Origin: Mustelus asterias
Lineage: Eukaryota
Reading direction: 5' to 3'
Assembly (NCBI RefSeq): GCF_964213995.1
Contig: NC_135804.1
Location: 94,736,001-94,800,000, forward strand
DNA: 64,000 bases
Shown here: one piece after another, positions 10,401-55,183 of the stretch
Position numbering within the stretch: the stretch's first letter is position 1
How the letters are laid out: each line of letters starts with the position of its first letter
Position numbers and translations under genes: made by a program
The notes under the pieces: model-generated
The model's input: the letters and a program-made list of their open reading frames with translations, nothing else
The model's database searches: none
Told to the model about the DNA's origin: nothing

Positions 10401-11730
10401 AGTAAGAAGTCTCACATCACCAGGTTAAAGTCCAACAGGTTTATTTGGCAGCAAAAGCCACACTAGCTTTCAGAGCGCTGCTCCTTCGTCAGGTGAGTGG
10501 GAGTTCTATTCACAAACAGGGCATATAAAGACACAAACTCAATTTACCAATATAATGGTTGGAATGCGAGTCTTTACAGGTAATCAAGTCTTAAAGGTAC
10601 AGACAATGTGAGTGGAGAGAGTGTTAAGCACAGGTTAAAGAGACAGGACAGTTAGTGAGATTTTGCAAGTCCAAGCAAGTCGTGGGGTTACAGATAGTGT
10701 GACATGGACCCAAGATCCCGGTTGAGGCCGTCCTCATGTGTGCAGAACTTGGCTATCAGTCTCTGCTCAGCGACTCTGCGCTGTCGTGTGTCGTGAAGGC
10801 CGCCTTGGAGAACGCTTAACAAAGAACAAAGAACAATACAGCACAGGAACAGGCCCTTCGGCCCTCCAAGCCTGCACCGCTCATGTGTCCACTAGACCAT
10901 TCTTTTGTATTCCTCTATTCCCAGTCTGTTCATGTGGCTATCTAGATAAGTCTTAACTGATCCCAGCATGCCCGCCTCAATCACCTTGCTTGGCAGTGCA
11001 TTCCAGGCCCCCACCACCCTCTGTGTAAAATACGTCCCCCTGACACCTGTGTTGAACCTTGCCCCCCTCACCTTGAACCTGTGACCCCTTGTGTTCGTCA
11101 CCTCCGACCTGGGAAAAAGCTCCCCACTGTTCACCCTATCTATGCCCTTCATAATTTTATACACCTCTATTAGGTCGCCCCTCATCCTCCGTCTTTCCAG
11201 GGAGAACAACCCCAGTTTACCCAATCTCTCCTCATAGCTAAGACCCTCCATACCAGGCAACATCCTTGTAAACCTTCTCTGTACTCTCTCCAAAGCCTCC
11301 ATGTCCTTCTGGTAGTGTGGCGACCAGAACTGGACGCAGTATTCCAAATGTGGCCTAACCATCGTTCTATACAGTTGCAACATCATATGCCAACTTTTAT
11401 ATTCTATGCCCCGTCCAATAAAGGCAAGCATGCCATGTGCCTTCTTCACCACCCTCTCCACCTGCGCTGCCACCTTTAAGGATCTGTGGACTTGTACACC
11501 CAGGTCCCCTGTGTGTCTATACTCCTGATGGTTCTGCCATTTATTGTATAGCTCCCCCTTACATTAGATCTACCGAAATGCATCACTTCGCATTTATCTG
11601 GATTAAATTCCATCTGCTATTTCTCCGCCCAATGTTCCAGCCTATCTATATCCTGCTGTATTCTCTGACAATGTTCATCACTATCCGCAACTCCAGCTTA
11701 CCCGAAGATCAGAGGCCGAATGCTCATGAC
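10401..11730. mobile_element. Penelope-like element (inverted arm plus terminal stub), split by a CR1
   Basis: Starts AGTAAGAAG; TSD GTAGAGAC at 10393-10400 and 11732-11739; GIY-YIG C-terminal coding on the minus strand. Confidence 0.85.
10819..11695 (-). mobile_element. Young 5'-truncated CR1 (HER1-like)
   Basis: ORF 10892-11473 (LYRTMVRPHLEYCVQFWSPH, LERRRMRGDLIEVYK); (TGTTCTT)n tail; TSD GCTTA at 10814-10818 and 11696-11700. Confidence 0.92.
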
Positions 11731-11807
11731 CGTAGAGACCATGGGTTTGGAAGGTGCTATCAAAGAAGCCTAGGTGAGTTGCTGCAGTGCATCTTGTAGA
11801 TGGAACA

Positions 11808-12113
11808 AACTGGTTAGCACTGCTGCCTCACAGCACCAGGGCCCAGGTTCAATTCCAGTTTCGGGTCGCTGTCTGTGTGGAGTTTGCACATTCTCCCTGT
11901 GCCGGTGTGAGTTTCCTCCAGATGCTCCGGTTTCCTCCCACACTCCAAAGATGTGCAGGTTAGGTTGATTGGCCATGCTAAATTGACCGTAGTGTCAGGG
12001 AGATTAGCAAGGTAAATGTATAGGATTGTGGGGATAGGGGCTGGATGGGATTGTGGTCGATACAGACTCGATGGGCTGAATGGCCTCCTCTGTACTGTAG
12101 GGATCCTATGTAT
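11808..12113 (+). mobile_element. HE1/V-SINE (5' clipped)
   Basis: TGGTTAGCACTGCTGCCTCACAGC, B box GGTTCAATTCC, body and CTGTAGGGATCCTATG tail. Confidence 0.85.
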
Positions 12114-12347
12114 GCCGGTGGCGGAGGAGGATGTTGAATGTGGTGGATGGGGTCCAGTTAAGTGGGCTGCTTTGTCCTGGATGTTGTCACACTTCTTGAG
12201 TGTTGTTGGAGCTGCGCTCACCCAGGCAAGTGAAGACTATTCCATTGCGCACCTGACTTGTGCATTGTAGATGGTAAACAGGCTTTGGAGGAGTCAGGAG
12301 GTGAGTTGCACTCCACAGAATTCTCAGCCTCTGGCCTGCTGTTGTAG

Positions 12348-13125
12348 TCATGATGTGGAGATGCCGGCGTTGGACTGGGGTAAACACAGTAAGAAGTTTA
12401 ACAACACCAGGTTAAAGTCCAACAGGTTTATTTGGTAGCAAAAGCCACACAAGCTTTCGGAGCTCTAAGCCCCTTCTTCAGGTGAGTGGGAATTCTGTTC
12501 ACAAACAGAGCATATAAAGACACAGACTCAATTTACATGAATAATGGTTGGAATGCGAATACTTACAACTAATCAAGTCTTTAAGAAACAAAACAATGTG
12601 AGTGGAGAGAGCATCAAGACAGGCTAAAAAGATGTGTATTGTCTCCAGACAAGACAGCCAGTGAAACTCTTCAGGTCCACGCAACTGTGGGGGTTACAAA
12701 TAGTGTGACATGAACCCAATATCCCGGTTGAGGCCGTCCTCGTGTGTGCGGAACTCACAAGTTCCACACACACGAGGACGGCCTCAACCGGGATATTGGG
12801 TTCATGTCACACTATTTGTAACCCCCACAGTTGCGTGGACCTGAAGAGTTTCACTGGCTGTCTTGTCTGGAGACAATACACATCTTTTTAGCCTGTCTTG
12901 ATGCTCTCTCCACTCACATTGTTTTGTTTCTTAAAGACTTGATTAGTTGTAAGTATTCGCATTCCAACCATTATTCATGTAAATTGAGTCTGTGTCTTTA
13001 TATGCTCTGTTTGTGAACAGAATTCCCACTCACCTGAAGAAGGGGCTTAGAGCTCCGAAAGCTTGTGTGGCTTTTGCTACCAAATAAACCTGTTGGACTT
13101 TAACCTGGTGTTGTTAAACTTCTTA
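12348..13125 (-). mobile_element. Palindromic Penelope-like insertion (arms ~366 bp, centre ~12757)
   Basis: Identical peptides on opposite strands (12499-12684 - and 12831-13016 +); TSD CTGCTGTTGTAG. Confidence 0.92.
13031..13067 (+). ncRNA. Minimal type I hammerhead ribozyme (PLE-associated); mirror copy at 12448-12484 on -
   Basis: CAC-CTGAAGA-A-GGGGC(TTAGA)GCTCC-GAAAGCTT-GTG: conserved core boxes, stem II, palindromic AGCT in place of stem III, CAC/GTG stem I. Confidence 0.75.
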
Positions 13126-13140
13126 CTGCTGTTGTAGCCA

Positions 13141-13310
13141 CAGTAAGAAGTTTAACAACACCAGGTTAAAGTCCAACAGGTTTATTTGGTAGCAAAAGCT
13201 ACCAAATGTGTGGCTTTTGCTACCAAATAAACCTGTTGGACTTTAACCTGGTGTTGTTAAACTTCTTACTGTGTTTACCCCAGTCCAACGCCGGCATTTC
13301 CACATCATGA
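13141..13310 (+). mobile_element. Mini fold-back Penelope-like insertion
   Basis: Inverted arm plus sense arm with tail; TSD CTGCTGTTGTAGCCA at 13126-13140 and 13311-13325. Confidence 0.9.
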
Positions 13311-14338
13311 CTGCTGTTGTAGCCAAAGTATTTACATGGCTGGTGTTTAAAACAACTCAAACACTAAGCCTTCCTAAATACAAAATATAACTGCCTCATT
13401 AACACTTTGTTTTAGTGAGAAGTAAAAGTGAAGGCCCAAAGTGCAGGACACCACTGAGGTTAAATTAAAAGAGAAAATTCATCACATCAAGAATTATCAA
13501 TTGAGCTGTGTCAAGCATGTGTTTAAATGCTTGGGGTTTATAGAAGCAAAGAAAGAAGTGCAGAGGTCTGTGCTTTGAGGTCCTGCATTAGTTATAGATT
13601 GCATGATAATCGATGAGTACCATGGAGTTGGACTGACTGAGGTGCAACCAGCAACAATCACCACCCCACTTCCCTGACAGTAAACAAAATGGTTTGTTGG
13701 CAGACTCTGAAAATTAATCAAAAGAGTCATATTTGTTTGTGGTACATTGGTTAGTGCACTTCAGATCCTTGAAAGAATTGGCCTCTGTACATTGATTGCA
13801 ATGAAGACTGGTTTCATTTTTATTGAAGTTTTTTCTCTAATCGCCACATTCTGTTTAAAGGAGATGAGCAGTGGATTCTCAGAATTAAACATTGAAGGAC
13901 TTGATTAATTATTCGATCTTATCTTCTTGTAAGGTGCTCAAGTCTTAGAGGCTGTGAGGCTTCGCTGAGCGGTGAATAGTTGAAACAAAGATAAATGTTA
14001 TGCGCAAAATGTAGATGGGAATAAATGGCAAAATTGTTTGACTGCCTTGTTGGGTTTTTGCTCAGAAATGTTTTGAAAATCATTTGTAAAATAATGTGTT
14101 TGCTTCATTATAAATATTGAAACTATTAAGAACAATGATGATTTGAAGAGCTCTGAGTAACATTAACTGATAGAAACAACATACTTTGGATCATTGGGAA
14201 AGAATATAAAATCTTCCAAATTTGCATATTTCCAATCTGTGAACATAAATACAATCACAAAGGTCTGCTGTGAGATTTCACTTTGAAACTGTAGGTAAAA
14301 ATCAGAGGTCTTTGAAAATTCCTGACAAGTATGATCTT

Positions 14339-14513
14339 CATGATGTGGAGATGCCGGCGTTGGACTGGGGTAAACACAGTAAGAAGTTTAACAACACCAG
14401 GTGAAAGTCCAACAGGTTTATTTGGTCGCAAAAGCCACACAAGCTTTCGGAGCCCCAAGCCCCTCCTTGAAGAAGGGGCTTGGGGCTCCGAAAGCTTGGG
14501 TGGCTTATACTAC
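14339..14513 (-). mobile_element. Mini fold-back Penelope-like insertion
   Basis: TSD CAAGTATGATCTT at 14326-14338 and 14514-14526; fold-back occurs at the hammerhead core. Confidence 0.9.
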
Positions 14514-14789
14514 CAAGTATGATCTTAACAGCAGTTAATGTAGCTGTTGTGAAGCCTGAGTAACTTCCCATCTTGTCTGTTTTACTGTCCATTCTTAAAT
14601 GTTACCGTATTTTTTCTATGCCCTGCATTCACCTATTTGAAGTTAGCAGATCTGCAGATTTAGTAAGTTCTTTCCTCACTGTTACTACAACACTGACAGG
14701 TAAATCCCAAATGCTTTTTAGCAATTTCTCAGTCTTGTCCTCTATAAAGCAGGGCATTTTCCATTATGTATATTTCATTTTGATCAAAC

Positions 14790-15780
14790 TTTGTTAAGGG
14801 CAAATCATGTTTAACTAATTTGCTTGAGTTTTTTGATGAGGCAACAGAGATGAATGTAATGCTGTTGATGTAGTATTATATGTTTACTTCCAGAAGACAT
14901 TTAACACAGTGCCATGGACTCGTGAGCAAAATTATAGCTCATGGAATAAAAAGAACAGTAGCAACAAATATACAAAATTGGGAGAGTGACAGAAAACAGA
15001 GAGTAGTGGTTAATGGATGTTCCTCAGACTGGAAAAGCTGACATCGTGGAGTTTTCCAGGGGCCTGTGTGAGGAGGCAGGAGAAGAGGAACCTGGGTGCA
15101 TTTGTGCATAAGTCATTGAAGGTAGCGGACCCAGGTTGAGCGAGTGGTTAAAAAAGTATTTGGGCAATAGGGCATATAATATAACAACAAGGAGGTTATG
15201 TTAAACTTGTATAGAACACTGATTCAACCTTAAATTGACTATTGTGTCCCGTTTTGCCCACAGCACTTTTTAGGAACAATAAGAAGTCTCACAACGCCAG
15301 GTTAAAGTCCAACAGGTTTATTTGGTATCATGAGCTTTCAGAGTGCTGCTCTTTCATCAGCTGACTCATCTGATGAAGGAGCAGCGCTCCAAAAGCTTGT
15401 GATACCAAATAAACCTGTTGGACTTTAACCTGGTGTTGTGAGACTTCTTACTGTGCCTATCACAGTCCAACGCCAGCATCTCCACATCATCACTTTTTAG
15501 GAAGGATATGAGGGCATTCGAACAAACGGAAAAGATTCACAAGGTTGGTTCCAGGGATGAAGAACTCCAGTTATGTAGATAGATTGAAGAAGCTGAGACT
15601 ATTCTTCTTGTAGAAAAGAAGGTTGAGAGGAGATTTGATAGAGATGTTCAAAATCATGAGAGGTCTGGACAGAGATGGAGAGAAATTGTTCCCATTGGCA
15701 TAAGGATTAAGTTCCAGAGGGCACAGATTTAAGTTAATTGGCAAAAGAAGCAATTGTGACATAAGGAAAATCTTTTTCAT
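14790..15780 (+). mobile_element. Old CR1 RT fragment
   Basis: Degenerate CLTNLLEFF, DFQKTF and EKRRLRGDLIEMFKIM motifs. Confidence 0.75.
15277..15490 (+). mobile_element. Mini fold-back Penelope-like insertion inside CR1
   Basis: TSD CACTTTTTAGGAA at 15264-15276 and 15491-15503. Confidence 0.9.
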
Positions 15781-18533: not shown

Positions 18534-18649
18534 GTAAAAGCAAAATACTGCGGATACTGGAATCTGAAACAGAAAACAGAAAATGCTGGAAAATCTCAGC
18601 AGGTCTCACAGGTGTTGTCAGACTTGCTGAGGTTTTCCAGCATTTTCTG
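18534..18649 (-). mobile_element. Fold-back terminal fragment of a second, probably Penelope-like, family
   Basis: ACAGAAAATGCTGGAAAATCTCAGCAGGTCT is inverted as AGACTTGCTGAGGTTTTCCAGCATTTTCTGT; flanking direct repeat TCAGTGAGC at 18523-18531 and 18650-18658. Confidence 0.55.
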
Positions 18650-18696
18650 TCAGTGAGCAGATTATTGCTGAGTTTGGGTTTGGCTTGCTTCTTTCA

Positions 18697-18936
18697 CAAT
18701 AAGAGTTTTAACAACACCAGGTTAAAGTCCAACAGGTTTATTTGGTAGCAAATGCCATTAGCTTTCGGAGCGCTGCCCCTTCGTCAGATGGAGCAGATAT
18801 CCACTCCATCTGACGAAGGGGCAGCGCTCCGAAAGCTAATGGCATTTGCTACCAAATAAACGTGTTGGACTTTAACCTGGTGTTGTTAAAACTCTTACTG
18901 TGTTTACCCCAGTCCAACGCCGGCATCTCCACATCA
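18697..18936 (+). mobile_element. Mini fold-back Penelope-like insertion with hammerheads on both strands (18755-18791 -, 18806-18842 +)
   Basis: TSD TTGCTTCTTTCA at 18685-18696 and 18937-18948; CCAT-CTGACGA-A-GGGGC(AGC)GCTCC-GAAAGCTA-ATGG. Confidence 0.9.
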
Positions 18937-19105
18937 TTGCTTCTTTCAGACAGAACATGCCGTGGCAATTTTCCATATTGCTGGGAAGATGCCAATGTTG
19001 TAGATGTACTTGAACAGGTTGGCTAGATACATGGCTAGTTCTGCAGCACAAGAGTTCTGTTGCCAGAAGGGGTTGTCAGACCCTGTAGCCTTTGCAGCAT
19101 CCACT

Positions 19106-20649
19106 GGGGGCGATTCTCCCAAAAAAATTCCAAGTGTTGAATTCATGTACAAGCTCTAGTAAATCCCGCTGGTTTTTTCAGCAGGATTTTCAAAATGAAT
19201 CGCCCACAATCTGTGCGCTTCAGATTGCACTAGCGTGAATCAGGCTGAAAATGCTATGGGCGGGGTTTATTCCCGCTGGAGAGGCCGGCAGCAAAGTGCT
19301 GAGTGGGCCACTGTGCATGCGCCGATCTATCAGCGCCGATTGCTGATCAGCCCCGCATCGCCAGCCGTGCAGCCCTGCCACGGCCCAATCGCTGGCCCCC
19401 TGAACATGTCCGGGCCAGCCTTCCCCACCGATCCTGAATGCAGATTGGCAGTGGGACCCCCTGCCCCCCATTAGGTCTCTCCCTGTCCCCATTAGGCCTT
19501 GCCCCCTTGGCACTGCCCATTACCTGGTGAGCAGTGCCAAGGTGTCCCCTGGGCATTGGCACTTTGCCCGTTGGGCAGTGCCAGGGGCCCAGGCTGGCAC
19601 TACCAAGGTGCCAATGCCCAGAGGGCAACCCAGCCCATGCTGGTGGAGAAGGTGGTGAAGAAGGCATATGGTATGCTTGCCTTTATAGGACGGGGTATAG
19701 AGTATAAAAGCTGGAGTCTGATGATGCAGCTGTATAGAATGCTGGTTAGGCCACATTTGGAGTACTGCGTCCAGTTCTGGTCGCCGCACTACCAGAAGGA
19801 CGTGGAGGCATTGGAGAGAGTGCAGAGAAGGTTTACCAGGATGTTGCCTGGTATGGAGGGTCTTAGCTATGAGGAGAGATTGGGTAGACTGGGGTTGTTC
19901 TCCTTGGAAAGACGGAGAATGAGGGGAGATCTAATAGAGGTATACAAGATTATGAAGGGTATAGATAGGGTGAACAGTGGGAAGCTTTTTCCCAGTTCGG
20001 AGGTGACGATCACGAGGGGTCACGGGCTCAAGCTGAGAGGGGCGAAGTATAACTCAGACATCAGAGGGACGTTTTTTACACAGAGGGTGGTGGGGGCCTG
20101 GAATGCGCTGCCAAGTAGGGTGGTGGAGGCAGGCACGCTGACATCATTTAAGACTTACCTGGATAGTCACATGAGCAGCCTGGGAATGGAGGGATACAAA
20201 CGATTGGTCTAGTTGGACCAAGGAGCGGCACAGGCTTGGAGGGCCGAAGGGCCTGTTTCCTGTGCTGTACTGTTCTTTGTTTTGTTCTTTGTATGCCAGA
20301 CCCTCTAGGGGGTCCTCGATTACCTGGCCCTTCACTCGAGCAGGGATGGGCCGCTAGCTCCCCGCAAATGGGCAGATGCTGTAAACCCCGCTGGAGTAAA
20401 CCACTCTTGGTGGGGGGGAGATACTAGCTGGCTGCTAATGGCATTGAAATTACATGCAAATTACCTGATGCATGATGCATTAAATTCCGCGCCTATTTCT
20501 GGTGCAGAGCTGACAACGCCGGATATCTGGAGCTGGGAGGCGTACTCAGGGCCGGGCGTCCAGCGTGGATTGCGCTAATTGAGCGCTGCTTGAATCTCCT
20601 GGCCTGCTGCGCTAAAAAATTAGCGCAGCGTGATGGGAGAATTGCCCCC
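19106..20649. mobile_element. Non-autonomous PIF/Harbinger-type DNA transposon
   Basis: TIRs GGGGGCGATTCTCCC / GGGAGAATTGCCCCC; 3-bp TSD ACT at 19103-19105 and 20650-20652. Confidence 0.8.
19640..20292 (+). mobile_element. Young CR1 3' fragment inserted in the Harbinger element
   Basis: VEKVVKKAYGMLAFIGRGIEYK...RPHLEYCVQFW; TGTTCTTTG tail. Confidence 0.92.
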
Positions 20650-20863
20650 ACTGAGCGAATTGAATTGGCTGAAGATTGGGATCTGTGATGCTGGAGACCT
20701 GAGGTAAAGATCGAGATGGATCAGCCACTTGACACTTTTGGCTGAAGATTGTTAGAAATGCTTCTGTCTTGTCTTGCACTGATGTGCTGGACTCCCCCAT
20801 CATTGAGGATGGGATTTTGTGGAATCTCATCCTCCAGTTAGTTATTATTATCCAACACCATTC

Positions 20864-21142
20864 ATGGTGGCACAGTGGTTAGCACTGCTGCCTCACAGTG
20901 CCAGGAACCCAGGTTCGATTCCCAGCTTGGGTCACTGTCTGTGTGGAGTTTGCATGTTCTCCCTGTGTCTGCATGGGTTTCCTCCGTGTGCTTTGATTTC
21001 CTCCCACAGTCTGAAAGAGTTGCTGGTTAGGTGCATTGACATGAACAGGCGGCGTAGTCTGGCGACTAGGGGATTTTCACAGTAACTTCATTGCAGTGTT
21101 AATGTAAGTCTTACATGTGACTAATAAATAAACTTACTTACT
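20864..21142 (+). mobile_element. V-SINE (GACTAATAAATAAAC tail type)
   Basis: A/B boxes, body, tail GGATTTTCACAGTAACTTCATTGCAGTG...TAATAAATAAAC. Confidence 0.85.
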
Positions 21143-21899: not shown

Positions 21900-23170
21900 A
21901 AAGATGTCAAAAGGCATTTGATACAGTGCCACATAACAGACTTGTGAGAAAAATATTTGCTCATGGTATAAAAGGGAAAGTAGGGACTTAAAGTTTATTT
22001 AGTAGTGTCACAATTAGGCTTACATTAACACTGCAATGAAGTTACTATGAAAATCTCCTAGTCACCACACTCTGGCGCCTGTTCGGGTGCACTTAGGGAG
22101 AATTTAGTTTGGCTAATGCACCTAACAGCACGTCTTTCAGACTGTGGGAGGAAGCCCACACAGACATGGCAAGAACATGCAAACTCCGCACAAACAGCGA
22201 CCCAAGCCGGGAATCAAACCCGGGGCCCTAGCATTTTGAGGAGTGACAAGAAGCAGAGAGTAGTTATAAATGGTTTGTTGTTTTTCAGATTGGAGGAAAG
22301 TTTATAGTTTAGTTCCCGGGGTCAGTGTTGGGAGCCTTACTCTTCCTGATACATGTTAATGACCTAGACTGTGGTGTTCAAGGCATGATTTCAAAATTTG
22401 CAGATGATAACGAAGATTGGAAATGTTGTTAACTGTGATAAATAGCAGATGAATGAAGTTCAATACAGCAAAGTGTGAGGTGATTCATTTTGGTAGGAAG
22501 ATTATTGCGAGACAGTATAAATATATGTACAAAAGTCTTTGAAAGGGCAGTGCATGTTGAGAGACCAATTAATAAAGCATTTAGTATCATAGGTTTCATT
22601 AATAGGGTCGTGGAGTACAAGAATGAGGAGGTTATGAACTTGTATAAAACATTAGTTAGGCCTCATCTGGAGTACTGTGTCACATTCTGGGTGCCTTACT
22701 TGAGGAAGGATGTGAAGATGTTGGAAAGAGTCCAGAAGAGATTCACAAGAATGATTACTGGGATTAAGAACTACCTATGAAGATGGATTGGAGAGATTGG
22801 GATTGTTTTCCTTGGAGAAAAGAAGGCTGAGAGGAAACTTGATAAATTGAAACTTGACAAGATCCTGAGGAGAATGAACAGGGTAAATAGTAAGAAACCG
22901 TTTCTCCTCAAGACCGGACTAGAGATAACAGATTCAAAATAATTGGCAAAAGCAGTAAAAGTGATGCGAGGAAAAACTTGGTGGTTGGAGTCTGGAATGA
23001 ACTTCCCAGAGGGTGGTGGTGGCGGGTTCGATCGAGGTGTTCAAAAGGGAATTGGATTGCCACTTGCAAATAAAAAATGTACAAGGTTACTGGGTTAAAA
23101 GGCGAGTGGGACTAAGTAGAATGCTCTCAGAGAGCTAGTGTAGACTCAATGGACCAAATGCCTCCTGTGC
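21900..23170 (+). mobile_element. Old CR1 RT/3' fragment containing a minus-strand V-SINE (~21989-22228)
   Basis: LYKTLVRPHLEYCVTFW...LERVQKRFTRMI; SINE tail AAAGTTTATTT at 21990. Confidence 0.8.
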
Positions 23171-23369
23171 TGCAAACATTCAGTGATTCTGAGTCTTGCC
23201 TGCAGAATAGCAAAAACCGTAGAACAATGCCCGTGATTACCCAAAATTCCACACTAGTAACTCTGGATTGGTCAAAATTGTCTGAATGTGTCAAATTATC
23301 ACGCCGACCAATCAGAGTGGAGTTAGCCCATACAAGACTGTGTGGAAAAAAAAAGTGCAAAACCTACAG

Positions 23370-23640
23370 GCTAAACCTGTAAGAAAATTAAAAGTGTTGT
23401 TTATCAGAGAGAAGATGAACTTGTTACAGAAAGTGAAAAACCGTGGTGTGAAGAGGGAAGCGGATATCGCGAAGGAATGGACGATTCCACCATCGAGTTT
23501 GCACAGCATTATGAAACGCAACACAAGGATCTTGAAACAGTTTGATAAACGGGCATTCTCTGCAGCAAGGAAGAGGATAAGAATGACTGCCAATGAGTCC
23601 AATGCAGGTTCATTTGCTTGTTTCCCTAGCCAAAGCTGCA
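23370..23640 (+). mobile_element. Tigger/pogo-like transposase N-terminal (CENP-B/psq HTH) remnant
   Basis: RKLKVLFIREKMNLLQKVKNRGVKREADIAKEWTIPPSSLHSIMK...RKRIR matches the HTH_psq pattern. Confidence 0.7.
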
Positions 23641-23642
23641 AA

Positions 23643-23853
23643 GATGTGGAGATGTCGGCGTTGGACTGGGGTGGGCACAGTAAGAAGTCTCACAACACCA
23701 GGTTAAAGTCCAACAGGTTTATTTTGAATCACGAGCTTTCGGAGCACTGCTTCTTCATCAGGTATACTCACGTGATGAAGGAGCAGCGCTCTGAAAGCTT
23801 ATGATTCCAAATAAACCTGTTGGACTTTAACTTGGTGTTGTGAGACTTCTTAC
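23643..23853 (-). mobile_element. Mini fold-back Penelope-like insertion
   Basis: TSD CAAA(G/A)CTGCAAAG at 23631-23643 and 23853-23865; fold-back just 5' of the hammerhead. Confidence 0.88.
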
Positions 23854-27551: not shown

Positions 27552-28072
27552 GTAAGAAGTCTCACAACACCAGGTTAAAGGCCCAACAGGTTTATTTGGT
27601 AGCAAAGGCCACTAGCTTTCGGAGCGCTGCTCCTTCGTCAGGTAAGTGGGAGTTCTGTTCACAAACAGGGCATATAAAGACACAAACTCAATTTACAAAA
27701 TAATGGTTGGAATGCGAGTCTTTACAGGTAATCGAGTCTTAAAGGTACAGACAATGTGAGTGGAGAGAGGGTTAAGCACAGGTTGAAGAGATGTGTATTG
27801 TCTCCAGCCAGGACAGTTGGTGAGATTTTGCAAGCCCAGGCAAGTTGTGGGAGTTACAGATAGTGTGACATGAACCCAAGATCCCGGTTGAGGCCGTCCT
27901 CATGTGTGCGGAACTTGGCTATCAGTCTCTGCTCAGCGACTCTGCGTTGTCTGCGCTCCGAAAGCTAGTGGCTTTTGCTACCAAATAAACCTGTTGGACT
28001 TTAACCTGGTGTTGTGAGACTTATTACTGTGTTTACCACAGTCCAACGCCGGCATCTCCACATCATGACTAT
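27552..28072 (+). mobile_element. Asymmetric fold-back Penelope-like insertion
   Basis: ~400 bp inverted arm plus ~120 bp sense arm; TSD CTTCAGGACTCGG at 27540-27552 and 28073-28085. Confidence 0.9.
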
Positions 28073-28184
28073 CTTCAGGACTCGGCCAGCTCAGTTAACT
28101 GTGAGACCACTGAGTCACTCTTGGTAGACCTTGGATCATATAAACTAATTTCAAAGCTGCCTAAATTTATGATATTTAACATAA

Positions 28185-34890: not shown

Positions 34891-34896
34891 GTGCTA

Positions 34897-38442: not shown

Positions 38443-39218
38443 TCAAGGGGGTTGTTTTAGATGATCTCACAGAGGCAGTCCCAAAACAGTAGGGTGCATG
38501 TGGTCTGGAGAAGGGGAAGGGCAAAGTCGATAAAGGGCACGAGGACATCAACATTATAGGAAAGGCAATGTTAGGAACAAAGGGTGGAATTCCCGATAAC
38601 AGTCGGGAAAGTCGGCATGATTTCTGCTGGGTGACAGGGCAGGTGAACACATGCGGTCTTCCACTTTTCAGCTCATGCATTAGTATGGAGCTTGGCAAAT
38701 CTCTTGGCAGGGTCGGCAGGAGGTTTCTTGCCCTGCCATCACCTCATGGGATGGAGATGCTGGCATTGGACAGGGGTAAACACAGTAAGAAGTCTCACAA
38801 CACCAGGTTAAAGTCCAACAGGTTTATTTGGTAGCACAAGCCACTAGCTTTCGGCCCTTTGTCAGGTAAGTCATGGGGCCAAAGGTCCTGGTATCATATT
38901 TAAATGGCGCCCAGACTGACATTCACTCATCGCAGATCAGGAGCTCCATACTGCTCGTCCAGAGCCCTTGCAGCTGCAGATCTTAGTGGAGAAGCTGGCA
39001 GATATGAGCAACTGCATCACAGAATGTACAAGGGTTCCTCTGGCGTTGTCTTTCACTCATCTCTAGATAAGAGCACCAGCTGCGATCGGGTCAATGTTCA
39101 GCAGCCTCTTGACTGTCTAGAGGCCCTGCTGCTTCTTGCTGCTCAGGTCTTTGCACTTCCTAGCCCTGTCAGCCTGTGGTGGGTCTTCCTTCTCCTCATC
39201 TGGATGAGAGTCATTGCC
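38443..39218 (+). repeat. Direct duplication, copy 1 (includes a truncated PLE end at ~38750-38870)
   Basis: Near-identical to 39731-40517; near-identical ORF pairs in the track. Confidence 0.95.
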
Positions 39219-39220
39219 AT

Positions 39221-39727: not shown

Positions 39728-39730
39728 TTC

Positions 39731-40517
39731 TCAAGGGGGTTGTTTTAGATGATCTCACAGAGGCAGTCCCAAAACGGTGGGGTGCATGTGGCCTGGAGAA
39801 GGGGAAGGGCAAAGTCGATAAAGGGCACGAGGACATCAACATTATAGGAAAGGCAATGTTAGGAACAAAGGGTGGAATTAAGTCCGATAACAGTCGGGAA
39901 AGTCGGCATGATTTCTGCTGGGTGACAGGGCAGGTGAACACATACGGTCTTCCACTTTTCAGCTCATGCATTAGTATGGAGCTTGGCAAATCTCTTGGCA
40001 GGGTCGGCAGGAAATTTCTTGCCCTGCCATCACCTCATGGGATGGAGATGCTGGCATTGGACTTGGGTAAACACAGTAAGAAGTCTCACAACACCAGGTT
40101 AAAGTCCAATAGGTTTATTTGGTAGCACAAGCCACTAGCTTTCGGAGCGCTGCCCCTTTGTCAGGTAAGTCATGGGGCCAAAGGTCCTGGTATCATATTT
40201 AAATGGCGCCCAGACTGACATTCACTCATCGCAGATCAGGAGCACCGTACTGCTCGTCCAGTGCTCTTGCAGCTGCAGATCTTAGTGGAGAAGCTGGCAG
40301 ATATGAGCAACTGCATCACAGAATGTACAAGGGTTCCTCTGGCGTTGTCTTTCACTCATCTCTAGATAAGAGCACCAGCTGCGATCGGGTCAATGTTCAG
40401 CAGCCTCTTGACCGTCTAGAGGCCCTGCTGCTTCTTGCTGCTCAGGTCTTTGCTCTTCCTAGCCCTGTCAGCCTGTGGTAGGCCTTCTTTCTCCTCATCT
40501 GGATGAGAGTCATTGCC
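39731..40517 (+). repeat. Direct duplication, copy 2
   Basis: Matches 38443-39218 with scattered substitutions and ~11 extra bases. Confidence 0.95.
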
Positions 40518-43500: not shown

Positions 43501-44809
43501 CTTTTGCCTCAACCATGAATCTTTTAAGTTAATTGCGAGGTCTCATAAGTCTCCACCTCAAGAAAATTCTCCTTGAGCCTGCTCCAGATCTTATACCCTT
43601 TAATCTTGTGCCTATTGCCATTTATTCTTTTCCCTTCAACTTCTGGAAATGGGCTGCTTATAACTACCCTGTTTCATCCTTTTGTAATTAAACATTTTCT
43701 AATACATTTTCCAGATAAGGATTTTCATTCAACCTCCAGGCTCATTACATTACCAGATATTGCATGTGTAAAGGCATACTTAGTTTCCAAGGATGTTGAG
43801 GGTTCGCATATGGGGCTGGTCTATGGCACTGACAGATCAAGAAATATCAGAGTACAACCTAGAAGCATAACACATTCTACTTTTTTATATGTTTGTTGAA
43901 AATGTTCTTATATTTTACATAGCAAACAAACACAGATACAGATCCACATAGTGCCCGGGTGTACATTCCAACGCGACTGGACTCAGGGCTCCCCGTGGCC
44001 AGGGGACAAGCCCCTGGGTAATACATTCTTTAACTGATCCTTCCAGTAGTATTACTATAGTTTATGAATGCATTGTAATAAGCAAGCTACAGAAATAGGT
44101 AGATGTCGTCAGTGATGGTGTTTGTAACCATAAATAGTAGCTGACCAACTATAAAAATAGCCATTTCTGTTGTTTCTAATTATAAAATCTGTGACTTGTA
44201 TTGGTGCATGTTCCTATCACACACAGCACTTGATAATTACGTGTTATTCCCTTTCCCCAAAAGCATCTTGTATTAGTGTGTGTGCGTATATTATTACCTT
44301 AGATAAAATCTTGAATAGAAATCTCTAATAGAACTCTGGCAAGATGTGCTAACTACACAATGCACTTCACAACAAAGGTATATCTCTTCAAGGATTATTT
44401 TGATCAGCATTCATGTAAATGCATTATATGTAATTTGACATGCATTATGTGAAGATTTTCCCTGTTTCACTGGGCTTTACAGCAAGCTTCTTTCATCACT
44501 CTCTGTGCATTCACTCCCTGTCATTTTGCATTGCTCCAAAAACAAAATCACGCCGATGTGTCATACCAGTGATTCGTGACTGTAGTCAGATAGTGTTCAA
44601 ATACTTGCAGCCTGGTTGCTAGGCAGTAAAGATCATTCAACTGCAGCACATTTCCTGAATGCCTAACTCTAGCCTAATTCCTGCTTTTCAAGAAGCAAGA
44701 TTTCAGGTGTATCAATGATGTGTTTTGTGGAGAAAATACCCATCAATACTTTAGTTATCCATTATAATACATGTTCCCAAAGTGTTTCTGGAACTTTTGT
44801 AGAAGTACT

Positions 44810-45126
44810 CCCCCATCCTCACCAACCACCCCCACCATCCTCAACACCAAACCGTCCCCCACCCCCATCCTCACCAACCACCCCCCTCCCCCATCCTCAC
44901 CAACCACCCCCCTGCCCCATCCTCACCAACCACCCCCTGCCCCATCCTCACCAACCACCCCCTGCCCCATCCTCACCAACCACCCCCTGCCCCATCTTCA
45001 CCAACCAACTCCCTCCCCCATCCTCACCAACCACCCCCCTCCCCTATCCTCACCAACCACCCCCTGCCCCATCTTCACCAACCACCCCCTGCCCCCATCC
45101 TCACCAACCCCCCCCCCCCCCCCCCA
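44810..45126. repeat. C-rich minisatellite (~26-28 bp unit, ~11 copies)
   Basis: CCCCATCCTCACCAACCACCCCCTG repeated. Confidence 0.92.
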
Positions 45127-45432
45127 GCTTATCCAAATAGAAATACTACGTGAATGGACCTCGACAGTGAGTTTCAGTAGGCTATTTGACTGTGGATGGA
45201 GGACCCCTGCTAAGTGAGATCCAGCCTTCTGATGTTCACACAAACCCACATTTATCATGGATCACTGGTTAGAAATTAGGAGGAGGAAACCTAGCATTTT
45301 TACTTCGCTTCCCTTCCTAGTTCAGAGAAACTGAGGTGGATTGCAATGTACTTAATGTTGCACCAGGTGCGATCACTAAACTCAACACAAACTGTTAGCC
45401 AATCTGGTGCTTCCTGATCGATAGTAATTACA

Positions 45433-45515
45433 GTAAGAAGTTTAACAACACCAGGTTAAAGTCCAACAGGTTTATTTGGTAGCAAAAGCCACACATCTAT
45501 AGTATCTCCACATCT
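45433..45515. mobile_element. Abortive Penelope-like insertion (short inverted arm plus tail stub)
   Basis: TSD ATAGTAATTACA at 45421-45432 and 45516-45527. Confidence 0.85.
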
Positions 45516-47342: not shown

Positions 47343-48502
47343 GGTAAGAAGTCTCACAATACCAGGTTAAAGTCCAACAGGTTTATTTGGTCGCAAATAC
47401 CAAAAGCTTTCGGAGCACTGCTCCTTCGTCAGATGGAGTGGAAATTTGCTCTCAAACAGTGCAAACAGACACAAAATCAAGTTGCAGAATACTGATTAGA
47501 ATGCGAATCCCTACAACCAGCCAGGTCTTAAAGATACAGACAATGTGGGTGGAGGGAGCATTAAACACAGGTTAAAGAGATGTGTATTGTCTCCAGACAG
47601 AACAGCTAGTGAGATTCTGCAAGCCCAGGAGGCAAGCTGGTGGGGTTACTGATAATGTGACATAAATCCAACATCCCGGTTTAGGCCGTCCTCATGTGTG
47701 CGGAACTTGGCTATCAGTTTCTGCTCAGTGACTCTGAGCTGTCGTGTGTCGTGAAGGCCACCTTGGAGAACGCTTACCTGAAGATCCAAGGCTGAATGCC
47801 CGTGACTGCTGAAGTGCTCCCCCACAGGAAGAGAACAGTCTTGCCTGGTGATTGTCGAGCGGTATTCGTTCATCTGTTGTCGTAGCGTCTGCATGGTTTC
47901 CCCAATGTACCATGCAGACGCTACGACAACGGATGAACGAACACCGCTCGACAATCACCAGGCAAGACTGTTCTCTTCCTGTGGGGGAGCACTTCAGCAG
48001 TCGCAGGCATTCAGCCTTGGATCTTCAGATAAGCGTTCTCCAAGGTGGCCTTCACGACACACGACAGCGCAGAGTCACTGAGCAGAAACTGATAGCCAAG
48101 TTCCGCACACATGAGGACGGCCTAAACCGGGATGTTGGATTTATGTCACATTATCAGTAACCCCCACAGCTTGCCTCCTGGGCTTGCAGAATCTCACTAG
48201 CTGTTCTGTCTGGAGACAATACACATCTCTTTAACCTGTGTTTAATGCTCCCTCCACCCACATTGTCTGTATCTTTAAGACCTGGCTGGTTGTAGGGATT
48301 CGCATTCTAATCAGTATTCTACAACTTGATTTTGTGTCTGTTTGCACTGTTTGAGAGCACATTTCCACTCCATCTGACGAAGGAGCAGTGCTCCGAAAGC
48401 TTATGGTATTTGCTACCAAATAAACCTGTTGGACTTTAACCTGGTGTTGTGAGACTTCTTACTGTGTTCACCCCAGTCCAACGCCGGCATCTCCACATCA
48501 TC
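47343..48502 (+). mobile_element. Palindromic Penelope-like insertion (arms ~550 bp, centre ~47903) with GIY-YIG C-terminus
   Basis: YIGETMQTLRQRMNEHR...PVGEHFS...EQKLIAKFRTHEDGLNRD on both strands; TSD GAAAATAAATTA at 47331-47342 and 48503-48514. Confidence 0.95.
48370..48406 (+). ncRNA. Minimal type I hammerhead ribozyme (also at 54417-54453 +, 55047-55083 +, 53449-53485 -, ~47400-47436 -)
   Basis: CCAT-CTGACGA-A-GGAGC(AGT)GCTCC-GAAAGCTT-ATGG; stem I covaries with the CAC/GTG version. Confidence 0.78.
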
Positions 48503-48859
48503 GAAAATAAATTAACCAGCTTGATCTGACACTTCCTGTCATTATTTGTGGAATTGCAGTGGTTCAGGAATAAAATAGGGTGTATGTTTAGAGTGATAAT
48601 GAAGAAAGTACGAAGATACATACTTTGTGTAGGTCCCAAAATTCCAGTCATTGGTTTTCACTTGTTATTGAAGATGGCTGCTTCTCACATACACACAGTC
48701 ATTTGTTGTGCATTCCAACATGGCTGATGGCAGATTGTAGCCATGCATGGCTTTCCACAGTACGGGCAAGGATGAATTGTCTGATTTTGTTTAAACAGCC
48801 TGGTATTTCTAGCTTGCCTTTGTCCTTAGCTGCCAGTATTCTTTGCTATTCTAAGGAAA

Positions 48860-51800
48860 CATGACATGAGATTGCTCTCTAAGGAGTTCTTTCTTAAACT
48901 TATTTTTCTCCCAACCTGGAGTGGACGTGCCACGTTTCCTGAGGTTAACCTTCAAGGACTTTTTGAACCTTAATCTTAGCCTACCTCACAGGCAGTATTC
49001 AAATTTAAATTGTGAATACATGACTACCTTAGGGATTTTATTGTCAGACATATGTACTGCATGTCCACTCCATCTTAGTGGGCGGTATGGTGGCACAGTG
49101 ATTAGCACTGCTGCCTCACAGTGCCAACGACCAGTTTCAATTCTGGCCTTGGGGGACTAAGTATGTGGAGAGAACAAAGAACAATACAGCACAGGAACAG
49201 GCCCTTCGGCCCTCCAAGCCCGTGCCGCTCCCTGGTCCAAACTAGACCATTCTTTTGTATCCCTCCATTCCCACTCCGTTCATATGGCTGTCTAGATAAG
49301 TCTTAAACGTTCCCAGTGTGTCCGCCTCTACCACCTTGCCTGGCAGCGCATTCCAGGCCCCCACCACCCTCTGTGTAAAATATGTCCTTCTGATATCTGT
49401 GTTAAACCTCCCCCCCCTTCACCTTGAACCTATGACCCCTTGTGAACGTCACCACCGACCTGGGGAAAAGCTTCCCACCGTTCACCCTATCTATGCCTTT
49501 CATAATTTTATACACCTCTATTAAGTCTCCCCTCATCCTCCGTCTTTCCAGGGAGAACAACCCCAGTTTACCCAATCTCTCCTCATAACTAAGCCCCTCC
49601 ATACCAGGCAACATCCTGGTAAACCTCCTCTGTACTCTCTCCAAAGCCTCCACATCCTTCTGGTAGTGTGGCGACCAGAACTGGACGCAGTATTCCAAAT
49701 GCGGCCGAACCAACGTTCTGTACATCTGCAACATCAGACCCCAACTTTTATACTCTATGCCCCGTCCTATAAAGGCAAGCATGCCATATGCCTTCTTCAC
49801 CACCTTCTCTACCTGTGACGTCACCTTCAAGGATCTGTGGACTTGCACACCCAGGTCCCTCTGCGTATCTACACCCTTTATGGTTCTGCCATTTATCGTA
49901 TAGCTCCTCCCTACATTATTTCTACCAAAATGCATCACTTCGCATTTATCAGGATTGAACTCCATCTGCCATTTCTTTGCCCAAATTTCTAGCCTATCTA
50001 TATCCTTCTGTAGCTTCTGACAATGCTCCTCACTATCTGAAAGTCCTGCCAATTTTGTGTCGTCCGCAAACTTACTGATCACCCCAGTTACACCTTCTTC
50101 CAGATCGTTTATATAAATCACAAACAGCAGAGGTCCCAATACAGAGCCCTGCGGAACACCACTAGTCACAGGCCTCCAGCCGGAAAAAGACCCTTCCACT
50201 ACCACCCTCTGTCTTCTGTGACCAAGCCAGTTCTCCACCCATCTAGCCACCTCCCCCTTTATCCCATGAGATCCAACCTTTTTCACCAGCCTACCATGAG
50301 AGACTTTGTCAAATGCTTTACTAAAGTCCAGATAGACGACATCCACGGCCCTTCCCTCGTCAACCATTCTGGTCACTTCTTCAAAAAACTCCACCAGGTT
50401 AGTGAGGCATGACCTCCCACTCACAAAACCATGCTGACTATCGTTAATGAGTTTATTCCTTTCTAAATGCGCATACATCCTATCTCTAAGAATCTTCTCC
50501 AACAACTTCCCCACCACGGACGTCAAGCTCACTGGCCGATAATTACCCGGGTTATCCTTCCTACCCGTCTTAAATAACGGGACCACATTAGCTATCCTCC
50601 AATCCTCTGGGACCTCACCTGCGTCTAGTGACAAGACAAAGATTTGCGTCAGAGGCCCAGCGATTTCATCTCTCGTCTCCCTGAGCAGCCTTGGATAGAT
50701 TCCATCAGGCCCTGGGGATTTGTCAGTCTTTATATTCTCTAACAAACCTAACACTTCCTCCCTTGTAATGGAGATTTTCTCCAACGGTTCAACGCTCCCC
50801 TCCGAGACACTCCCAGTCAACACATCCCTCTCCTTTGTGAATACTGACGCAAAGTATTCATTTAGGATCTCCCCTACTTCTTTGGGCTCCAAGCATAATT
50901 CCCCACTTTTGTCCCTGAGAGGTCTGATTTTTTCCCTGACAACCCTTTTGTTCCTAACGTATGAATAAAATGCCTTGGGATTCTCCTTAATCCTGTCTGC
51001 CAAGGACATTTCGTGACCCCTTTTTGCCCTTCTAATTCCCCATTTGAGTTCTTTCCTACTTTCTTTGTACTCCTCCAGAGCTCCCTCCGTTTTTAGCTGC
51101 CTGGACCTAACATACGCCTCTCTTTTCTTTTTGACCAGTCCCTCAATTTCCCTGGTTATCCACGGTTCTCTAATCCTACCCTTCCTATCCTTTTTTACAG
51201 GCACATGCCTGTCCTGTAGCCCTAACAACTGTTCCTTAAAAGACTCCCACATGCCAGATGTGGATTTACCCTCAAACAGCCTCTCCCAATCAAGAGCTGC
51301 CAATTTCTGCCTAATCCCACTAAAGTTAGCCTTCCCCCAATCCAACACCTTACCCTTGGGACACCACTCATCCTTTTCCATCACTATCCTAAAGCTAACA
51401 GAATTGTGGTCACTATTTGCCACATGTTCCCCTACCGAAACTTTGAAGACCTGACCGGGCTCATTCCCCAGTACTAGGTCCAGTATAGCCCCCTCTCTAG
51501 TCGGGCTATCTACATATTGTTCCAAAGAACCCTCCTGTACGCATTTTACAAATTCCTCCCCATTCAGAGTCCCAGCTCTCAGCGATTTCCAGTCTACACC
51601 AGGGAAATTGAAGTCTCCCACTACAACAACCCTATTTTTCCTGCACCTATTCAGTATCTCCTGACATATGGAGTTTGCACGTTCTCCCGTGTTTGCTCGC
51701 GTTTCCTCCTGATGCTCCAGTTTCCTCCCACATTCAATTTGATTTGATTTGATACTCCAAAGATGTGTTGATGTGTTGTAGGTTGATTGGCCATGCTAAA

Positions 51801-52930
51801 TTGCCCCTTAGTGTCAGGGGGACTAGCAAGGTAAATACATGGGGTTATGGGAGATAGGGTTTGGGCGGGGTTATTGTCGGTGCAGGCTCGATGGGCCGAA
51901 TGACCACCTTCTGCACTGTAGGGATTCTATGATTCCATCTGAGTTGGGCTCTGATGATAAGTACTTCTGTTTCAGACATTCCTGTCCTTTGAAGTACCTC
52001 AGTTTTGGACACTTTTTCTCCTCACATTTGATGCCAGTGATGTTCAGAATGTATTTCATGTGGAACCTGTCCAACTGTTTAATATGTTTGGAGTAGGTAG
52101 TCCATGCTTCATAGGCATATAAGAGGGTAGGTGTGACAACAGCTTTACGCACTGCAGGTTTTGTTGTAAGTTTGATACCTTGTTGCTGTCAGTGCAGACA
52201 TTTCTGAAGATGGTGCTTCCAAGATGGATGTAGTTAACTATAGCCTCCAGGGCTGTGTCATCGGTTATGGCAGACTCCGAATTTGGTGGTGGTTGAAGAA
52301 GTATATCTGTCTTCCTTAAGTTGATGGTGAGCCCATAGTCGTCGGCCACTTATGCAAAACAGTCCATGATTCTTTGAAGGCCATTCTTACATTGTACCAG
52401 GCACATTCATCAGAAAACAGCAATTCCCATAGCAATACCCTAGTTGAGGATTTCAGCTGCCTCAGGTTGAAGAGGTTTCCATCTGTTGTGAATTGGATGT
52501 GTTTTCATTCCATTGACATTTCCATCAAATGCTCCAAAAAGCATGGCAGGAAAGAATATACTGAACAACACAAGAACCATGGCATACCCCCTTGCTACTT
52601 GTTACATCAGAGGACTTATGTGTTCACCACGCTCAGCAAATCTGGCTGTCGTGAAACTGCTGTATCAGATTTACAGCTCTTTCAGAACATCCATGTTTGG
52701 CTAAGATTGTCCACAAGGCCTCACTATTTACTGTCAAAAGGCCTTTGTTAGAACATCAAAGGCAAAGTAGAGTCCCATCCGTTTTTTGTGGCGTTTCTCT
52801 TGTATTTGGCAAGTGGTGACAATCATGTTGCCTTTGCCTTTCCTGTACCCATTTTGACTTTCTGGTAGTACACGTTCTTCCATGTGGCTTGCCAATCTGT
52901 TGAGTAGAACTTTTGGTAGAATCTAGCAAA
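48860..52930 (-). mobile_element. Degenerate RTE-clade LINE hosting a V-SINE (49079-49170 and 51665-51935), which hosts a CR1
   Basis: KAVVTPTLLYAYEAWTTYSKHIKQLDRFH and YGLTINLRKT are RTE-type motifs; SINE halves join across the CR1. Confidence 0.75.
49171..51664 (-). mobile_element. Young CR1 (HER1-like) with uninterrupted 739-aa endonuclease C-terminus/RT ORF
   Basis: ORF 49402-51621: GDFN, SDH, GPDG, NYRPVSLTS, PQGSVLGP, FADD; (TGTTCTT)n tail. Confidence 0.96.
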
Positions 52931-53392
52931 AATTCCAATAAATACGCTGAAAAGTGTCAAGAAACAGAATATTCTTGGATGGAGTGAGTGAGGTTGTTAA
53001 ATTCCAATGGAAAATAAATCTCATGATCTCAGAATTCACAACTTCCTCAAAGTTGTGCTTTATGGACTATAATAATGGTGATAGCAGGTTAAATGTGTAA
53101 GTTATGTGAAGTCTGTGACCCACCCACTAGCAACGGTGGCACAGTCATTACCTAAGCCCTATATAAGGCAGGTCCAAGACTGGGCCTGCTGAACTGTCGT
53201 CCCAGCCAGGGACTAGTTGTGTATACCACGGCAGTAGTTTTACTTTGCATTCTGTAATGAACTATGTTCCTTTCCAGTCGGACTTTCTGAGTTATTACAA
53301 TGGAGCTAGACATTCTAGCCTCAGGCCTGCTTCCATCTCTTGCACTGCCTCCCCAAAGCAAAAATGCTGTATGCAGTGGTCCTTTATATAGA

Positions 53393-55183
53393 GTAAGAAG
53401 TCTCACAACACCAGGTTAAAGTCCAACAGGTTTATTTGGTAGCAAATACCATAAGCTTTCGGAGCAATGCTCCTTCGTCAGATGGAGTGGTCTCTGTTCT
53501 CAAACAGGGCACAGACACAGAAATCAAATTACAGAATACTGATTAGAATGCAAATCTCTACAGCCAGCCAGGTCTTAAATGCACAGACAATGTGGGTGGA
53601 GGGAGCATTCAACACAGGTTAAAGAGATGTGTATTGTCTCCAGACAGTACAGCTTGTGAAATTGTGCAAGTCCAGGAGTCAAGCTGTGGGGGTTACTGAT
53701 AATGTGACATAAATCCAACATCCCGGTTTAGACCGTCCTCATGTGTGCGAAACTTGGCTATCAGTTTCTGCTCAGTGACTCTGCGCTGTCGTGTGTCGTG
53801 AAGGCCGCCTTGGAGAACGCTTACCTGAAGATCCAAGGCTGAATGCCCGTGACTGCTGAAGTGCTCCCCCACAGGAAGAGAACAGTCTTGCCTGGTGATT
53901 GTCGAGCGGTATTCGTTCATCCGTTGTCGTAGCGTCTGCATGGTTTCCCCAATGTACCATGCAGACGCTACGACAACGGATGAACGAACACCGCTTGACA
54001 ATCACCAGGCAAGACTGTTCTCTTCCTGTGGGGGAGCACTTCAGCAGTCGCAGGCATTCAGCCTTGGATCTTCAGATAAGCGTTCTCCAAGGTGGCCTTC
54101 ATGACACACGACAGCGCAGAGTCGCTGAGCAGAAACTGATAGCCAAGTTCCGCACACATGAGGACGGCCTAAACCGGGATGTTGGATTTATGTCACATTA
54201 TCAGTAACCCCCACAGCTTGCCTCCTGGGCTTGCAGAATCTCACTAGCTGTTCTGTCTGGAGACAATACACATCTCTTTAACCTGTGTTTAATGCTCCCT
54301 CCACCCACATTGTCTGTATCTTTAAGACCTGGCTGGTTGTAGGGATTCGCATTCTAATCAGTATTCTACAACTTGATTTTGTGTCTGTTTGCACTGTTTG
54401 AGAGCACATTTCCACTCCATCTGACGAAGGAGCAGTGCTCCGAAAGCTTATGGTATTTGCTACCAAATAAACCTGTTGGACTTTAACCTGGTGTTGTGAG
54501 ACTTCTTACTGTGTTCACCCCAGTCCAACGCCGGCATCTCCACATCATCGAAAATAAATTAACCAGCTTGATCTGACACTTCCTGTCATTATTTGTGGAA
54601 TTGCAGTGGTTCAGAATGAACACCGCTCGACAATCACCAGGCAAGACTGTTCTCTTCCTGTGGGGGAGCACTTCAGCAGTCACGGGCATTCAGCCTTGGA
54701 TCTTCAGGTAAGCGTTCTCCAAGGCGGCCTTCACGACACACGACAGCGCAGAGTCACTGAGCAGAAACTGATAGCCAAGTTTCGCACACATGAGGACGGT
54801 CTAAACCGGGATGTTGGATTTATGTCACATTATCAGTAACCCCCACAGCTTGACTCCTGGACTTGCACAATTTCACAAGCTGTACTGTCTGGAGACAATA
54901 CACATCTCTTTAACCTGTGTTGAATGCTCCCTCCACCCACATTGTCTGTGCATTTAAGACCTGGCTGGCTGTAGAGATTTGCATTCTAATCAGTATTCTG
55001 TAATTTGATTTCTGTGTCTGTGCCCTGTTTGAGAACAGAGACCACTCCATCTGACGAAGGAGCATTGCTCCGAAAGCTTATGGTATTTGCTACCAAATAA
55101 ACCTGTTGGACTTTAACCTGGTGTTGTGAGACTTCTTACTGTGCTTACCCCAGTCCAACGCCGGCATCTCCACTTCATGACTA
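53393..55183 (+). mobile_element. Composite palindromic Penelope-like insertion with captured genomic segment (~53909-54614)
   Basis: TSD CCTTTATATAGA at 53381-53392 and 55184-55195; outer arms match each other, and the middle matches 47862-48567. Confidence 0.92.

Follow-up and report, generated by a model that had tools for sequence, protein, structure and literature searches.

Minimal hammerhead motifs in the pseudo-LTRs of an abundant shark Penelope-like element and an excess of insertion breakpoints at the predicted cleavage base

A stretch of 64,000 nucleotides of the Mustelus asterias genome (NC_135804.1, positions 94,736,001 to 94,800,000 of the forward strand; here termed the window) harbors repeated insertions of a Penelope-like element (PLE), whose arms carry a hammerhead-like motif. 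With moderate confidence, we propose that these motifs represent minimal type I hammerheads in the pseudo-long terminal repeat (pLTR) of a young, very abundant shark PLE, likely of the Neptune clade, and that truncated copies start in excess at the base of the predicted cut, which likely reflects in vivo cutting of a minority of the element RNA. An original prediction, made from the letters of the window, had proposed a recently mobile shark PLE family with an active, selected and covarying ribozyme.

Hammerhead motifs and insertions in the window

The window contains 13 strict cores (CTGANGA-N(10-20)-GAAAGCTH) between positions 10464 and 55079, five on the plus and eight on the minus strand, where 100 dinucleotide shuffles yielded a mean of 0.06 and a maximum of 1; the anticipated presence of the motif in more than 10 arms was thus confirmed. 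Twenty-two arms bear the conserved downstream anchor. Because the arms within one inverted insertion are mutual copies, and because 53919-54614 matches 47872-48567 at 692 of 696 positions, the 13 cores trace to eight insertion events (Table 1).

The core elements CUGANGA, GAAA and UH are present in all 13 motifs, in agreement with the published consensus of the minimal type I hammerhead. For most window cores, the predicted minimum-energy structure has the shape of a hammerhead with an open core. Positions 15.2/16.2 are palindromic and helix III is absent (the GC center being shared by 154,236 motifs genome-wide), such that stem III is reduced to the palindrome as the original prediction held. 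Its readings of stem I (CAC/GTG at 13031; CCAT/ATGG at 18806, 48370 and 55047) were correct, as was the restriction of N7 to C, A or T (13/13). The claim that pairing is maintained stands for 10 of the 13 cores, in which stems I and II both pair, pairs of one or the other stem having been lost at 47432, 23761 and 15360, and the TTGGG-loop example (~14490) proved to be without an intact core. N17, the cleavage base, is A, T or C in every window core, whereas genome-wide the assertion that it is never G fails for 2,136 G17 motifs against 154,236 with H17 (1.4%). An Rfam scan of the window returned no hammerhead family match and, under gathering scores, only miRNA-like hairpins, the inverted repeats of the element mimicking such hairpins.

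Table 1. Penelope-like insertions and arms in the window
Positions	Strand	Description
10399..10818	-	Solo arm: GIY-YIG ORF end, 3' UTR, hammerhead 10464-10492, short 3' end
12344..13128		Inverted pair, GTGTGG subfamily; hammerheads 12451-12481 (-, long end) and 13034-13064 (+, short end)
13139..13312		Tiny inverted insertion, same target as 12344..13128; + arm starts at 13207/13208, the predicted cleavage position (0/+1)
14338..14505		Degenerate inverted pair, TTGGG loop; both arms without intact core
15276..15494		Tiny inverted pair, short-linker subfamily; core 15332-15360 (-), stem I lost; 13 bp target duplication
18695..18946		Tiny inverted pair, ATGG subfamily; hammerheads 18759-18787 (-) and 18810-18838 (+); 12 bp target duplication
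23643..23853		Tiny inverted pair; core 23733-23761 (-), stem II broken
27552..28071		Inverted pair; hammerhead 27613-27641 (-); + arm truncated within stem II; 13 bp target duplication
38744..38860	-	Arm with broken core, in one unit of a 776 bp local duplication
40035..40164	-	Second copy of the 38744..38860 arm, core mutated
45431..45495	-	Tiny arm starting at the predicted cleavage position (0/+1), then target-like bases and a 10-11 nt tail piece
47344..48501		Inverted pair with GIY-YIG remnants; cores 47404-47432 (-) and 48374-48402 (+); 12 bp target duplication
53392..55184		Single young insertion; cores 53453-53481 (-), 54421-54449 (+) and 55051-55079 (+); 12 bp target duplication

The outer arms of 53392..55184 are identical at 525 of 527 positions, and the insertion is 98% identical to a full-length copy elsewhere in the genome (L041, described below). 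Its middle is the 696 bp copy of the older insertion 6 kb away mentioned above, and takes in 66 bp of unique flank past that insertion's target duplication; this looks like a template switch onto the neighbor or onto the neighbor's read-through RNA. At 12330-13325, one target is shared by two insertions of the same subfamily, and the 12 bp target sequence is present three times. The local duplication at 38443-40517 (~780 bp, 96% identical) carries a hammerhead-broken arm in each unit.

Structure and classification of the element

The end of a GIY-YIG frame lies upstream of the longer window arms on the same strand, and arms encode the last 35-98 amino acids of the open reading frame (ORF) of L041 (tblastn). 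A genome search with this frame returned 83,976 candidates, 150 of which were scored, and several of the scored loci sit in frames of more than 800 amino acids. L041 is a full copy, consisting of an inverted truncated arm, a pLTR fragment with a hammerhead, an 892-amino-acid ORF, and a pLTR with a hammerhead and tail, bounded by a target duplication of 12-13 bp; its two hammerheads are 3,017 nt apart, and the ATG lies 97 nt past the cut site. The ORF matches RVT_1 (39.8 bits) and, at its C terminus, a GIY-YIG domain (23.3 bits; cut-off, 22.6) above the Pfam cut-offs, and possesses DKG and YIDD motifs and a CX5CxxC linker (residues 754-762) between the reverse transcriptase (RT) and the endonuclease. 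The single ORF with RT and C-terminal GIY-YIG, together with the pLTR layout, bears out the assignment to the Penelope-like elements. The nearest named proteins are from sharks (80-93% identity), followed by turtles at ~44%, and nine long ORF copies, chosen as best matches, are 98.2-99.6% identical; these values, with the 12-13 bp target duplications, uphold the description of a recently mobile shark element.

On the basis of its protein motifs, the element likely belongs to the Neptune clade, with which it shares the C-terminal GIY-YIG domain, the CX2-5CxxC linker and the DKG motif, as well as partial tandems with an inverted 5'-truncated copy and a tail of 30-40 bp at one end (PMC8557442). 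The assignment rests on the linker, which Nematis also possesses. Pseudo-LTRs formed by partial tandems with an inverted 5'-truncated copy were observed in L041, L042, L045, L047 and L048, and inverted pairs also occur in the window. The arms carry ORF ends and are mostly in inverted pairs or single, unlike the tandems of non-LTR retrozymes, and no non-coding head-to-tail hammerhead array was found in the window.

Genome-wide abundance and 3' ends

Genome-wide, the strict motif occurs 154,236 times. Approximately 1% of these are estimated to be chance matches, from ~25 of 100 unrelated sequences among the G17 matches listed; the control count of 139 understates chance. An unbiased sample of 140 evenly spaced 10 kb stretches (1.4 Mb) holds 66 strict motifs and 116 arms, 65 with an intact core, which extrapolates to ~300,000 arms in the genome. 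Insertions are mostly 5' truncated, and about half of the arms (62/116) are in inverted pairs; in addition, 5,134 tiny inverted insertions with a spacer of 4-34 and 3,855 with a spacer of 35-65 were counted.

Measured from the anchor, the 3' ends fall into clusters at 42-56 and 78-91 nt, ~38 nt apart (the matching mode used here and for the 245-arm set below skips some arms), and 29 of 31 inverted pairs combine one long and one short 3' end, as expected of a 30-40 bp tail at one end only. This pair of clusters agrees with the Anolis element, in which RT initiates internally at two sites (PMC11167929). Cleavage as the definer of insertion 3' ends was ruled out, as the ends are situated further downstream, ~60 and 100 nt past the cut site. 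In other organisms, RNA contigs from six runs contain this core along with both 3' ends, although contigs as such cannot reveal RNA ends.

Conservation and covariation of the motif

Of 245 arms, 98 spanned the whole 3' untranslated region (UTR), and clustering of these on non-ribozyme columns defined five subfamilies with at least 7 members. The subfamily consensuses diverge by 6-23% in the 3' UTR, yet none of 11 core columns differs among them, compared to 73 of 207 3' UTR columns (P ~0.008). Five further conserved columns are likewise unchanged (0/5), while N7 and N17, which together with the loops are free positions in hammerheads, both differ. No subfamily has G17, and the G17 matches are scattered across subfamilies, as expected for decay. 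The idea of a selected ribozyme holds for the source lineages and not for the dispersed copies, among which the comparison of core (2/297) with 3' UTR changes (134/6141) was discarded as a measure of selection because of the small number of changes and the confounding effect of sub-subfamily structure. These copies likely are dead passengers; because a transcript across an inverted pair is predicted to fold into a single long hairpin that buries the ribozyme, the term "selected" is not applicable to them.

The predicted covariation was sustained in part. A two-sided switch from C-G to T-A in stem I, adjoining the core, does exist, but it maps to one branch of the tree and so represents a single event within the AGCT family. 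Pair 3 of stem II is A-U or G-U, so that GGAGC/GGGGC amounts to a wobble on one side; CpG sites are where N7 C>T, loop AGC>AGT and CTCC>CTCT all occur, and part of the remaining within-family variation looks like CpG decay.

In a second family (loci L081-L110), the palindrome is ACGT. It has 6,854 matches against a control of 1,378, is older and more decayed than the AGCT family, and has flanks that cannot be aligned to it; the core is kept, the palindrome is swapped and stem pairs have changed on both sides. In a set of 18 sequences picked by hand from the two families, 95% of cells are paired and 6 of 9 pairs show two-sided change, slid controls reaching 16-44%, the cells not being independent events and most two-sided change stemming from the between-family comparison. 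Tblastn of 30 ACGT loci provided no ORF link for this family, the matches in 4 loci (75-88% identity) belonging to the AGCT family. Further palindrome families with A/T-only centers were not found (304 matches against a control of 213, largely decayed copies). A remnant of the ACGT family lies at 18535-18650 of the window, and the downstream sequence of the family contains two pyrimidine tracts ending in CAG, which resemble splice acceptors.

Breakpoints at the predicted cut base

For the GTGTGG subfamily, an arm was counted genome-wide when its match starts at a given base after three mismatches, position 0 being the base after the predicted cut. At position 0, 437 5' breakpoints were recorded, compared to 234 at +2 and 104 at +3 (2 and 3 bases upstream, respectively); corrected for the frequency at which random bases pass each pattern, the excess at position 0 is 3.3-fold over +2 and 6.8-fold over +3 (raw ratios, 1.9 and 4.2). 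An extra G is found just upstream in 79 of 100 among the matches listed at position 0, where G or C was allowed, versus 9 of 100 at +2 (by eye), and 2 of 100 listed at position 0 are plain deletions. For the activity that the original prediction ascribed to the ribozyme, this accumulation of 5' breakpoints is indirect evidence.

Two arms of the window (13208 and 45494) also start at the base after the predicted cut. In the unbiased sample and window combined, 5 of 126 arms (~4%) start at 0/+1 and 9 across 17 flanking positions, while ~105 of the 126 reach at least 10 nt upstream of the cut site; most copies probably derive from uncut RNA. Among 15 tiny inverted loci examined, 7 with a diagnosed subfamily end at 0/+1 and 5 end elsewhere. 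Counted by eye, 21 of 50 such loci ended at the cut site, a figure that is an upper bound since a GT sets two subfamilies apart.

Proposed mechanism and alternative explanations

Under the cleavage model, reverse transcription would, like that of the Anolis element, start at two positions downstream of the cut site, ~60 and 100 nt away. Where the RNA is uncut, which would be the usual case, RT would read through the hammerhead and so account for the ~154,000 motifs that are intact; where it is cut, RT would run off at nucleotide 1.1, often with the addition of an untemplated base, and the resulting cDNA would be joined by snap-back or microhomology. Precedents exist in R2, where the 5' junctions follow the site of ribozyme cleavage and include untemplated bases (PMC3774820), and in R2 transgenes, which exhibit snap-back joins (PMC11371274). 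As the monomer, judging from the literature, cannot form helix III, cutting would require that two AGCU palindromes pair with each other or that the element protein assist; in the Anolis relative, this protein is a predicted dimer. We are evenly divided on a bolder version of this model, in which thousands of fossil cDNA ends at the cut base in shark genomes constitute the first genomic record of in vivo cleavage by a Penelope minimal hammerhead during retrotransposition, in a genome with ~154,000 intact cores, and in which the element protein may join two RNAs into a double hammerhead.

A number of observations weigh against cleavage. The control positions of the GTGTGG count all lie upstream of the cut and none downstream, and three of the 15 tiny inverted loci could be assigned to -2 as well as to 0. 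The ATGG subfamily yielded 274 matches at position 0 with no control position, and ~42 of 100 among the matches listed are palindrome joins; the 92 matches of the short-linker subfamily mostly reflect a stem I microhomology join and show no G excess, and a spacing test for a downstream promoter, using an 8-nt linker, gave the same microhomology-dominated matches. The downstream 5' UTR is nearly as conserved as the core, with 4 of 48 columns differing among subfamilies, such that core invariance is not unique. Cofolding of two copies was predicted to favor a stem II swap over a helix III dimer. Hammerhead cleavage leaves a 5'-OH on its product, which sits uneasily with a cap-like extra G. For the Anolis element, RNA reads with ends at the cut site were absent, and insertion in vitro proceeded without need of cleavage (PMC11167929).

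The extra G also provides the chief argument for a capped polymerase II start on the same base, which would leave the hammerhead conserved in source lineages but without a record here; we consider this explanation unlikely, albeit the foremost competitor. The T|G at -1/+1 fits a pyrimidine-purine initiator, and the 35 nt downstream are invariant between subfamilies. Furthermore, the G found in 79 of 100 listed matches is the signature of capped RNA seen at the 5' junctions of full-length LINE-1 (PMC11702581), and Penelope has an internal promoter (PMC2377424). Conversely, the base was predicted beforehand from hammerhead chemistry, and in the ATGG subfamily G upstream of position 0 is in no excess over the non-palindromic C (28 versus 30 among the matches listed, by eye), though a cap should add G regardless of the first base. 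In Drosophila virilis, moreover, transcription starts 46 bp before a 75 bp intron ending at helix I, well upstream of the cut (PMC2377424, PMC4209133). The missing G excess in this A-starting subfamily and the upstream D. virilis start lead us to lean towards cleavage over a cap.

More doubtful still is the notion that the peak marks a sequence hot spot for RT stalling or snap-back joining, formed by the GT repeat and short partner-arm microhomologies, with no RNA end involved. Sixteen of 100 matches listed at position 0 are a single junction type with the partner arm, microhomology dominates the ATGG and short-linker matches, and G precedes GTGG also in loci possibly at -2; against this, ~32 of 100 matches listed join unrelated DNA, 26 of those still with G upstream (by eye), and counts at the controls 2 and 3 nt off are lower by a factor of 3-7. 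That the motif has ceased to be a ribozyme and persists as a component of a protein-binding or promoter element is very improbable: the neighboring 5' UTR is about equally conserved and Penelope-like clades without hammerheads attain high copy numbers (PMC8557442), but variation affects N7, N17 and the loops, G17 characterizes no subfamily, and the ACGT family keeps only core and pairing.

Other repeats in the window

Copies of a long interspersed nuclear element (LINE) with AP endonuclease and RT, which we take to be CR1-like, are located at 49402-51795 (-; an open frame of 797 amino acids), 32328-34201 (-), 10823-11697 and 19639-20293. A second dispersed repeat of 200-300 bp, with copies 70-87% identical (4131-4428, 7704-8103, 9274-9585, 11811-12114, 20863-21135 and 21988-22241), is probably a short interspersed nuclear element. 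A weak CENP-B_N match (20.8 bits, just below the cut-off) at 23286-23640 is probably a DNA transposon remnant interrupted by the insertion at 23643. A copia-type RVT_2 reverse transcriptase fragment (1556-1921) and a C-rich minisatellite with 12 copies of a 26 bp unit (44808-45121) are also present.

Comparison with known systems

The motif is the published PLE minimal hammerhead, and the original prediction, therefore, largely restates known biology; what is new here is the genome-wide motif count and the breakpoint excess at the predicted cut base in one subfamily. A literature search, conducted largely without subscription papers, retrieved no paper on shark Penelope hammerhead counts or cut-site breakpoints. 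A 2026 preprint sampled one chondrichthyan for tandem retrozymes, dimer cleavage was addressed by Lunse et al. (2016; as cited in PMC6765202), and a 2021 paper describes the function of minimal hammerheads as unclear and possibly parasitic. The breakpoint peak bears on the open question of whether and why PLE hammerheads cut in cells, and ~300,000 arms give depth for reading cut events from insertion junctions. If the peak represents cleavage, the ribozyme would fire on a minor share of the templates in the germ line, yielding core-less dead insertions, and a purely computational activity test would become available for other Penelope families.

With the minimal hammerheads of metazoan PLEs (Cervera and de la Pena 2014, PMC4209133), the shark motif shares CUGANGAH, the extra base before helix II, the G10.1-C11.1 pair, the palindromic 15.2/16.2 positions, the absence of helix III, the pLTR location, the predominance of truncated dispersed copies and the dual motifs on opposite strands; the turtle row of the published alignment displays the same AGCU palindrome and a similar downstream CCAAAUAAA. 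That study covers Neptune elements, opposite-strand pairs and weak dimer cleavage, and states that there is no in vivo evidence. Its highest vertebrate count is ~9,000 (Xenopus), compared to 154,236 here by another descriptor, and the searched part of its supplement text contains no cartilaginous fish.

The Poseidon element PAc of Anolis carolinensis (Frangieh et al. 2024, PMC11167929) has in common with the shark element the pLTR-ORF-pLTR layout, two 3' ends separated by the tail, the use of both target strands and uncut RNA as the main template. It belongs to another clade, however, and its ORF starts inside the hammerhead, whereas the shark ATG lies past the cut; in addition, that study detected no PAc RNA ends at the cut site, where the genomic 5' breakpoints of the shark element pile up. 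Finally, the HDV-like ribozyme of R2 (PMC3774820) is comparable in that 5' junctions would report the cut site, with untemplated run-off bases, but it is a different ribozyme in a different element, and its cleavage sets the full-length 5' end, while only ~4% of shark arms start at the cut.

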